This document shows, in pieces, positions 6,196-7,509 of a stretch of DNA of 10,559 bases. The stretch is taken from IMG/VR virus record IMGVR_UViG_2526164631_000029. One strand, 5' to 3'. This DNA comes from a virus. Taxonomy: Duplodnaviria; Heunggongvirae; Uroviricota; Caudoviricetes. Within the stretch, counting starts at the first letter, position 1. The number at the start of each line of letters is the position of its first letter. The notes beneath the pieces are model-generated. The model was not told where the DNA came from, searched no databases, and saw only the letters and a program-made list of their open reading frames with translations. The translations under genes were made by a program, and so were the position numbers.

Positions 6196-7509
6196 ATGAC
6201 AGTAAAAATTTCTGGCGTGCTTAAAGATGGCACAGGAAAACCAGTACAGAACTGCACCATTGTGCTGAAGGCCAGACGAACCAGCAGCACGGTGGTGGTG
6301 AACACGGTGGCCTCTGAAAATCCGGATGAAGCCGGACGTTACAGCATGGATGTTGAGCATGGTCAGTACAGCGTCACCCTGCTGGTTGAAGGTTTTCCGC
6401 CTTCACATGCCGGGACCATCACCGTGTATGAAGATTCCCGACCCGGTACGCTGAATGATTTTCTCGGTGCCATGACGGAGGATGATGCCCGTCCTGAGGC
6501 ACTGCGCCGTTTTGAACTGATGGTGGAAGAGGTGGTGCGTAACGCAGAGGAGGCGAAGAAGAATGCCGGAGAGGCGGAGACGTCAGCGAGGAATGCCGGC
6601 ATATCAGCCAGTCAGGCAGAAGAGAGCGCTGCAAATGCTGACACTTCAGCAGGGGAGGCATCGGAGTCAGCCCGGCAGGCGGCAGAAAGTGCAGCCTCAG
6701 CAAAGCAGTCAGAGGATGCGTCCTCGTCCTCGGCTTCTGCGGCCGCTCAAAAAGCCAGTGAGTCATCACAAAGTGCAGCAGATGCTGAATTGTCAAGAAA
6801 GACGGCAGAAAGTGCAGCCGGTAATGCAGCCAGGGATGCAACGACCGCAGCAGAAAAAGCCCGGGAGTCAGCAGAAAGCGCACAGTCAGCGGAACAAAGC
6901 AGGATAGCGGCGGAAGACGCCGTAAACCGAATCCCCACCGTGGTGGGACCTCCCGGGCCAAAGGGGGAACAGGGGCCCGCTGGCCCTCAGGGGCCGAAGG
7001 GGGATAAGGGAGAGCGTGGTGACACCGGCCCTGTCGGGGCAACCGGCGAACGGGGACCGGCAGGTGATGCTGGTCCGGCAGGACCACAGGGACCGAAAGG
7101 CGACAGGGGAGAGCGGGGAGAGACCGGTCTGACGGGAAATGCAGGTCCACAGGGTCCAAAGGGAGATACCGGTGCGGCAGGCCCGGCTGGCCCACAGGGA
7201 CCGAAAGGAGAAACAGGTGCGGCTGGCCCGGTGGGGGCAACCGGACCTCAGGGGCCGAAGGGCGACCCGGGGGAGACGCAAATACGGTTCCGTCTGGGGC
7301 CGGGAAACATTATTGAGACAAACAGCCATGGCTGGTTCCCGGATACAGATGGCGCACTCATCACCGGACTGACCTTTCTTGACCCCAAAGATACCACACG
7401 GGTTCAGGGTTTTTTTCGGCATTTGCAGGTCAGGTTTGGTGACGGGCCGTGGCAGGATGTTAAGGGGCTGGATGAAGTGGGCAGTGATACAGGCAGAACA
7501 GGAGAATGA
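6196..7509 (+). CDS. stf: Side tail fiber protein, mosaic: lambda Stf-like N-terminal domain, Ala/Ser/Glu-rich low-complexity segment, collagen-like Gly-X-Y repeat block, short C-terminal domain
   Basis: 437-aa ORF; N-terminus [81 protein letters not shown] matches the lambda Stf N-terminal domain as recalled. Shine-Dalgarno GGTGGA at 6186-6191. Contains 37 uninterrupted G-X-Y triplets. Stop TGA at 7507-7509 overlaps ATGs at 7506 and 7511. Confidence 0.88.
6946..7278 (+). repeat. Collagen-like Gly-X-Y triplet repeat block (37 consecutive triplets, 9-nt periodicity) inside the tail fiber CDS
   Basis: Translation [111 protein letters not shown] has Gly at every third position. Recurrent units such as GPQGPKG are visible in the DNA. 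Confidence 0.9.

Follow-up and report, generated by a model that had tools for sequence, protein, structure and literature searches.

Collagen-like proteins of E. coli prophages were defined by Ghosh et al. in 2012 as "EHEC prophage collagen-like proteins" (EHEC, enterohemorrhagic E. coli). In that study (PMC3368898), the most common type, EPclA, has the domain order PfN-PCoil-Col-PfC, and nearly all EPclA copies in the Sakai and EDL933 genomes are 437 amino acids (aa) long with a PCoil of 116 aa and a Col of 111 aa (PMC3368898, Table 2). Recombinant EPclA is a trimer with the shape of a dumbbell on a hinged stalk; it gives a triple-helix circular dichroism signal with melting at 42 and 52 °C, and Col is a true triple helix melting at 42 °C. 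Its PCoil region is trimeric and α-helical, and its PfC trimerizes and nucleates refolding of the collagen helix (PMC3368898). In the literature collection searched, full-text matches to "EPclA" include no follow-up paper beyond the 2012 study. For the lambda-type side tail fiber, Stf, the Ur-lambda structure shows that residues 1 to 91 form a collar domain touching gpV and gpM, that a short linker follows, that a coiled coil starts at residue 102, and that four trimeric fibers protrude from the tail (PMC12617516), held by twelve collar domains. A 2026 preprint on phage phi24B describes the related EPclB-type protein gp61 as six lateral trimeric fibers on the virions, each combining a shaft of collagen type with a small globule at the C terminus, the receptor of which is probably not BamA. 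Here we analyze a 10,559-nucleotide (nt) stretch of a Caudoviricetes genome (IMG/VR record IMGVR_UViG_2526164631_000029; hereafter the window, whose positions serve as coordinates throughout unless another locus is named), in which an open reading frame (ORF) at 6196–7509 on the plus strand encodes a collagen-like fiber protein.

We conclude with high confidence that the gene is intact and that its product is an EPclA-type side tail fiber of a lambda-like prophage (Table 1). The ORF runs from an ATG at 6196 to a TGA at 7507–7509 and specifies 437 aa. Pfam searches of the translation return the prophage tail fiber N-terminal family PF08400 (aa 1–133, profile positions 1–133 of 134, E = 2.3e-68), the collagen family PF01391 (E = 4e-18), and PF06820, the family of putative prophage tail fiber C termini (E = 8.8e-36), so that the collagen and phage-fiber domains for which the first-pass annotation had proposed a search are all detected; the top PHROG families are all annotated as tail fiber or tail protein. 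Compared with EPclA ECs_2941 of the Sakai prophage Sp15, 412 of the 437 residues are identical (94%) with 0 gaps. The collagen domain is 100% identical, and the 25 substitutions fall mostly in the collar domain and PfC. This alignment also answers the concern that the reading frame might be an artifact, as there is no frameshift relative to a close homolog. PF08400, a PCoil segment, a single unbroken Col, PF06820, the characteristic preferences at the X and Y positions of the collagen triplets, and >90% identity to a listed member are thus all found in the window protein, and its sequence offers nothing that contradicts assignment to EPclA.

Belonging to a previously described family that hundreds of E. 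coli prophages carry, the protein is unremarkable. Matches that span 80% or more of the gene occur in 693 of 5426 complete E. coli genomes, at a median of 2 and a maximum of 16 places per genome, and 141 phage records, mostly of Shiga toxin (Stx)-converting phages, likewise match at least 80% of it, the best records listed being ≈95% identical. The same protein is annotated as RefSeq WP_000216477.1 in three E. coli genomes (12A, FDAARGOS_1059, and 602687), in strain 12A under the name "prophage tail fiber N-terminal domain-containing protein". The window itself is 99.99% identical to a locus of the O111:H2 strain 12A (L001); the two differ by one one-base indel upstream of the fiber gene, within 1–6195 (10559 versus 10560 aligned bases). 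The suggestion that such fibers were already known from pathogenic E. coli holds down to the exact type, EPclA (PMC3368898). Publication of the family and its domain structure dates from 2012, as does that of the trimeric collagen and coiled coil and of a probable function as side tail fiber, and we give little weight to any of these as discovery.

Reading the protein from its N terminus, the first 94 residues match chain Ta of PDB entry 9e7m, the Ur-lambda tail fiber, at 83 of 94 positions (88%, E = 2e-49), while the PF08400 match runs past the collar to aa 133 (nt 6594). The proposed lambda Stf-type N-terminal domain is therefore well founded, as is the acidic Ala/Ser/Glu-rich stretch of ≈135 aa that had been noted behind it: in residues 111–245, Ala makes up 32%, Ser 19%, and Glu 15%, and the net charge is -11, next to published PCoil values of 32%, 19%, and 13% (PMC3368898). 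The first-pass annotation did not recognize that this stretch is the known trimeric coiled coil, PCoil. The positions of Ala in aa 101–245 follow a sharp period of 3.50 residues (power 21, against a 95th percentile of 7 in shuffled sequences), and when the segment is laid out in heptads, Ala occupies two fixed positions almost throughout. The loose heptad A-x-x-A/S-x-x-S expected between PfN and Col of an EPclA is present, and residues 101–245 of EPclA itself were given high scores by coiled-coil predictors (PMC3368898). Of the nucleotide differences that set this segment apart from its counterparts in two related loci, L002 and L003 (the latter from Sakai), most are nonsynonymous (3 of 3 and 6 of 8), in contrast to those in the collagen block.

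The collagen block lies exactly where it had been described, and the longest run of Gly-X-Y triplets, counted by regular expression, is exactly 37 without interruption. Pro fills 18 of the 37 X positions (49%) and Asp or Glu 13 (35%), whereas the Y positions hold Lys or Arg 11 times (30%), Ala and Thr 8 times each, Gln 6 times, and Pro twice. These preferences match the published EPclP values (X: Pro 48%, Asp/Glu 36%; Y: Lys/Arg 31%, Ala 21%, Thr 20%, Gln 15%, Pro 7%; PMC3368898, Table 4). Relative to each of L002 and L003, the block shows 11 nucleotide differences, all of them synonymous, with 0 of 111 residues changed, a pattern compatible with purifying selection acting on it. The G+C content here is 71%. 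Two antisense ORFs that overlap the gene, at 6419–7240 (273 aa) and 6886–7512 (208 aa) on the minus strand, were rejected as genes; they most likely arise incidentally from codons that are repetitive and rich in G+C.

Taken with the published behavior of recombinant EPclA and the lambda tail structure, this architecture suggests how the fiber would be built. Three chains would join, with PfC and the Ala/Ser/Glu heptad segment both trimerizing, and PfC would nucleate folding of the 37 triplets into a collagen triple helix, as its recombinant paralog of the same architecture does. The product should be a dumbbell on a stalk of ≈17 nm of coiled coil and ≈32 nm of collagen helix (lengths calculated from the rise per residue), the two parts meeting at a hinge. 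The collar domain, from aa 1 to about 91, would dock at the junction of tail tube and tip, at gpV and gpM; attachment through this domain and a trimeric stalk are both well supported by homology. At the far end, the PfC globule may touch a feature of the E. coli surface and speed adsorption, while the J protein encoded upstream presumably stays the essential receptor binder.

Several points weigh against parts of this picture. Trimerization and the collagen fold are carried over from the paralog, and no receptor or adsorption role of PfC is established for any family member; PfC is only a putative point of receptor contact. A recent preprint argues against BamA binding by the related domain of phi24B and lambda_2B8. 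An AlphaFold2 monomer model of the C-terminal 84 residues, made from a 13-sequence alignment, was unusable, with a mean predicted local distance difference test score (pLDDT) of 47 and a predicted template modeling score (pTM) of 0.34, and it gives the distal domain no structural support of our own. Probably the low scores reflect a domain that is an obligate trimer in a family with almost no diversity. A PDB sequence search with the fiber protein found no solved relative of PfC or PCoil: the matches were to collagens, to the lambda Stf collar domain, and, weakly and through collagen only, to BclA, along with a weak match at the end of the collagen block to a hyaluronoglucosaminidase (6x3m_A; 32 residues, aa 331–362, E = 1.3e-05). 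A word-indexed homolog search with PfC returned near-identical fragments, partial copies at contig ends, and a few chimeras; it did not reach the 89-aa PfC-only paralog described below and did not deepen the alignment. One chimera, P0180 (92 aa), takes its N-terminal half from that 89-aa protein and its C-terminal half from a fiber PfC, which suggests recombination between the two PfC paralogs. In P0192 and P0169, PfC is joined to transposase or repressor fragments.

A different issue is whether the gene is in use at all, since the prophage around it has been broken by insertion sequence (IS) elements. Immediately downstream of the fiber gene, inserted 1 nt past its stop codon and missed in the first-pass annotation, lies an ISCro1-like element of the IS66 family, with genes for TnpC (7548–9119), TnpB (9139–9486), and TnpA (from 9486), into which an IS2 has been nested. 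The element entered by simple insertion, and the 8-bp target duplication it left is located wholly downstream of the fiber stop codon: CATGAACA stands on both sides, recurring in L001 past the far end of the IS at 12358–12365, just before an intact 89-aa ORF, and it is present as a single copy in the uninterrupted locus L002. In L001 the whole insertion (IS66 element, IS2, and duplication) spans 8315–12365, and the far IS66 end reads ...CCGGTTAC. Three genomes with an identical fiber protein capture successive stages: 602687 has an empty site and an intact gene K, FDAARGOS_1059 has the IS66 element only, and 12A has the IS66 element with IS2, which is also the state of the window. That three genomes record the stepwise decay of one prophage is a small addition to what is known. 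In strain 12A, further IS66-family elements break gene K and the gene for the terminase large subunit, which makes the prophage defective. In the window, tail gene K (282–881) is truncated at its 5′ end by a second copy of the IS66 family, whose terminal part is present (1–268, with ...GCGCTTAC at 261–268) and which shares ≈90% identity with the other copy across 657 nt; the element in the terminase gene of 12A is a third.

These insertions make it about an even bet that the fiber gene is an idle passenger of a dead prophage, one that has not yet decayed and owes its integrity to recent inactivation or to gene conversion from sister prophages. IS66-family elements sit in the terminase large subunit gene, in gene K, and between the fiber gene and its 89-aa neighbor. 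The uninterrupted 602687, with its identical protein, indicates that the insertions are recent, and gene conversion would find partners at the 5 sites of the genome where the gene is matched. On the other side, the ORF carries no disabling change, and resident lambdoid prophages with near-identical collar domains could, conjecturally, use the protein in trans. Idleness also concerns the present use of the gene rather than its identity, and is compatible with its being an intact EPclA fiber. Crippled by the insertions in the terminase gene and gene K, its own prophage would be unable to build the fiber into particles and probably leaves this copy unused; at most, the copy may act in trans for other lambdoid prophages resident in the cell or donate sequence to them by recombination.

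It is very improbable that the protein is instead a collagen mimic on the bacterial surface, directed at the mammalian host as an adhesin or virulence factor in the manner of streptococcal Scl or Bacillus BclA. Such a role would fit with the enrichment of the gene in pathogenic E. coli, on prophages with type III effectors (tccP2 and espV adjoin), and with the weak collagen-only match to BclA, and PMC3368898 explicitly allows for a role for the bacterium itself. However, the translation, read directly rather than with a dedicated predictor, shows neither a hydrophobic signal at its N terminus nor an anchor motif at its C terminus, its first 94 aa share 88% identity with the tail-fastening domain of lambda Stf, the gene stands within a tail module after J and lom, and the homologous gp61 has been seen on phi24B virions.

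Least credible of all is a truncated or aberrant fiber, whose distal module was lost to the adjacent IS element or whose frame was made by a sequencing error: the IS66 element does begin 9 nt past the stop codon, and the 76-aa non-collagen C terminus (residues 362–437) is small where lambda Stf is much longer, but PF06820 is matched over its entire profile (1–64 of 64), the last 17 residues (aa 421–437) are invariant through E437 in 8 aligned relatives, no gap separates the protein from Sakai ECs_2941, the target duplication is clean and falls entirely beyond the stop codon, and the identical 437-aa protein of 602687, with no IS element adjacent, already refutes it. The first-pass annotation was correct about the size of the C-terminal domain (≈76 aa) and mistaken in suspecting an unusual or truncated distal module. 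On the strength of the full-length profile match, the invariant C-terminal residues, and the copy in 602687, the C-terminal domain of this EPclA fiber is the family's standard PfC trimerization module, neither truncated nor unusual.

To see how the repeats within the gene relate to fiber length, we compared 63 relatives with both termini present (64 sequences counting the window). The number of Gly-X-Y triplets takes 14 values among them, from 0 to 37, and the collagen block starts at residue 137, 188, 210, 249, or 251. We looked at four collagen gaps and two coiled-coil gaps, in protein alignments only. Within the collagen block, a 43-nt unit occurs five times, at 67–77% identity to the reference copy and with spacings of 99, 63, 45, and 54 nt; a sixth copy (60%) at 3806 in gene J is probably due to chance. 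The gaps in relatives measure 15, 33, 54, and 87 aa, sizes that equal the distances 7179-7134, 7233-7134, 7134-6972, and 7233-6972 nt between repeat starts. In the coiled-coil segment, relatives show gaps of 41 and 63 aa. The 41-aa gap, found in P0002 and P0044, is bounded by two copies of AESAA/GCAGAAAGTGCAGCC, at 6682 and 6805, within direct repeats that lie 123 nt (41 codons) apart.

These results support the earlier proposal that the repeats are sites of recombination and length variation, and that length variants of the family map onto internal DNA repeats is a second small addition to published knowledge. The claim of degenerate DNA repeats in the Ala/Ser/Glu segment survives in part. 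The 15-mer GCAGAAAGTGCAGCC is present there as two exact copies and one 3-mismatch copy at 6766; with an antisense match at 9802–9816, inside the IS66 element, the window holds 4 matches against 0.41 expected, a number reached in 1 of 200 shuffles. There is no real tandem array, as Tandem Repeats Finder reports merely a 12-nt unit in 2.3 copies, and the regularity of the segment is a protein-level heptad rather than a DNA tandem repeat. Length differences in PCoil tabulated in 2012 were only multiples of seven (PMC3368898). Because 41 is not a multiple of seven, this gap should shift the heptad register by one, suggesting that DNA repeats and not helix register set the breakpoints. Some variant sizes do not fit a single repeat-to-repeat event. 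Over evolutionary time, the fiber would change its length by deletion and duplication between internal DNA repeats.

The IS66 element separates the fiber gene from a small neighbor. In intact relatives (L002, Sakai ECs_2940, and 602687), an 89-aa ORF begins one base past the fiber stop codon (TGAcATG), and the first 7 nt of this displaced gene are supplied by CATGAACA. Its product belongs to PHROG 576, "tail fiber protein", and consists of a Cys-containing leader of 27 aa (MNILKKIMQRLCGCGK...) followed by a full PF06820 domain, with 35% identity to the fiber's own PfC. We found no discussion of this gene in the accessible part of PMC3368898. One could go further and propose that the internal repeats are a built-in length dial and that the 89-aa protein is an unrecognized partner of the fiber tip, a combination that we consider rather unlikely. 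If there were such a dial, the collagen stalk would change in steps of ≈4–25 nm and the coiled coil by ≈6 nm, possibly adjusting how far the fiber reaches to how thick the O-antigen or capsule of the host is. If the 89-aa protein were such a partner, it might assist assembly, cap the fiber, or stand in as a distal subunit, and the IS66 element has here uncoupled it from the fiber gene.

The genes upstream of the fiber follow lambda tail order: a 5′-truncated K (NlpC/P60), I (PF06805), a 112-aa ORF, J (1159 aa, with the full set of J domains including PF24421 and PF12421), and lom (PF06316). The 112-aa ORF between I and J (1494–1832, plus strand) has a lipoprotein-like start, MNKTILFCTIIALTGC, matches no Pfam family, and falls in PHROG 914 (function unknown); it probably belongs to the accessory genes of the prophage. 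Late lambdoid transcription would read through the terminator-like hairpin that lies between lom and the fiber gene, and a promoter scan of 5300–7700 found no plus-strand sigma-70-like site, including in the stretch upstream of the fiber gene. Beyond the window, type III effector genes or remnants (a tccP2/EspF-repeat protein and espV) lie between the fiber region and tRNA-Ser/hyaA (L004 2295–4304, L005 10919–13213, L006 10674–12263); the 12A copy of this effector locus carries damage from a second IS2.

Table 1. Features of the fiber gene and its surroundings (window positions unless a locus is named).
Feature	Position	Strand	Basis
EPclA-type collagen-like side tail fiber gene, complete	6196..7509	+	ORF, Pfam, PHROG, Sakai ECs_2941 identity, RefSeq WP_000216477.1
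N-terminal collar domain (aa 1–94), homolog of lambda StfN, tail attachment	6196..6477	+	PDB 9e7m chain Ta match
PCoil Ala/Ser/Glu segment	6496..6945	+	Composition, Ala periodicity, coiled-coil predictions published for EPclA
Direct repeat copy 1 (AGGCGGCAGAAAGTGCAGCC, encodes ..AESAA)	6677..6696	+	Family D2, exact 15-mer; left edge of 41-aa gap
Direct repeat copy 2 (AGACGGCAGAAAGTGCAGCC)	6800..6819	+	Family D2, 95% identical to copy 1; right edge of 41-aa gap
Col, 37 Gly-X-Y triplets (aa 251–361), collagen triple helix	6946..7278	+	Regular expression count, PF01391
43-nt repeat, five copies, encodes G-P-(A)-G-P-Q-G-P-K-G-D/E	6972..7275	+	Family D1; starts 6972, 7071, 7134, 7179, 7233
PfC (aa 363–426), trimerization and distal globular module, complete	7282..7473	+	PF06820 profile 1–64/64
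Terminator-like hairpin and T run, between lom and fiber gene	6149..6178	+	Consensus scan, 13-pair stem; pattern match only
CATGAACA, 8-bp target duplicated by IS66 insertion	7510..7517	+	Read directly; contains start codon (7511–7513) of displaced 89-aa gene
ISCro1-like IS66-family element, begins GTAAGCGG, far end cut by IS2	7518..10131	-	Pfam IS66 domains, RefSeq annotation of L001, termini read
Partial IS2 nested in IS66, runs off window end	10132..10559	-	100% match to second IS2 copy of L001, rve_3 domain, annotation
89-aa PfC-only gene	L002 5316–5585; L001 12359–12628; L003 1903–2172 (Sakai ECs_2940)		PF06820, PHROG 576

Set beside known systems, the window fiber shares its base with lambda Stf (Ur-lambda; PDB 9e7m and 9mgh): the collar is 88% identical over 94 aa, a trimeric coiled coil comes next from about residue 102, and both genes lie downstream of J and lom. 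Beyond that point the two differ. Lambda Stf is described with segments as far as residue 525 and a receptor-binding domain, among them a hinge and a distal region resembling the T4 gp37 tip that binds OmpC, whereas the window protein has collagen and PfC in place of these distal parts, and a Pfam search found neither PF03406 nor any other fiber-tip family in it. Lambda Stf needs the Tfa chaperone, encoded by tfa downstream; in the intact relatives of the window, the 89-aa PF06820 gene occupies that place instead. EPclB, found in short-tailed Stx phages (933W Z1483, Sakai ECs1228, phi24B gp61), shares the PfN, PCoil, collagen, and PfC modules and forms trimeric lateral fibers held by their N-terminal domains, as we propose for the window fiber. 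It differs in having two collagen domains around a Pf2 repeat, a length of ≈645 aa, and podovirus-type tails, while the window protein contains a single collagen domain and is not matched by PF03406. The closest counterpart is EPclA (for example, ECs2717 and ECs2941 of O157:H7 Sakai), with the same domain order, the same 437-aa length, the same 111-aa Col, and the same gene position, after J and lom and, in Sakai, before the 89-aa ORF. From these Sakai copies the window gene is set apart by its host, which is O111:H2 (12A-like) and not O157:H7, and by the IS66 element with nested IS2 that splits off the 89-aa ORF.

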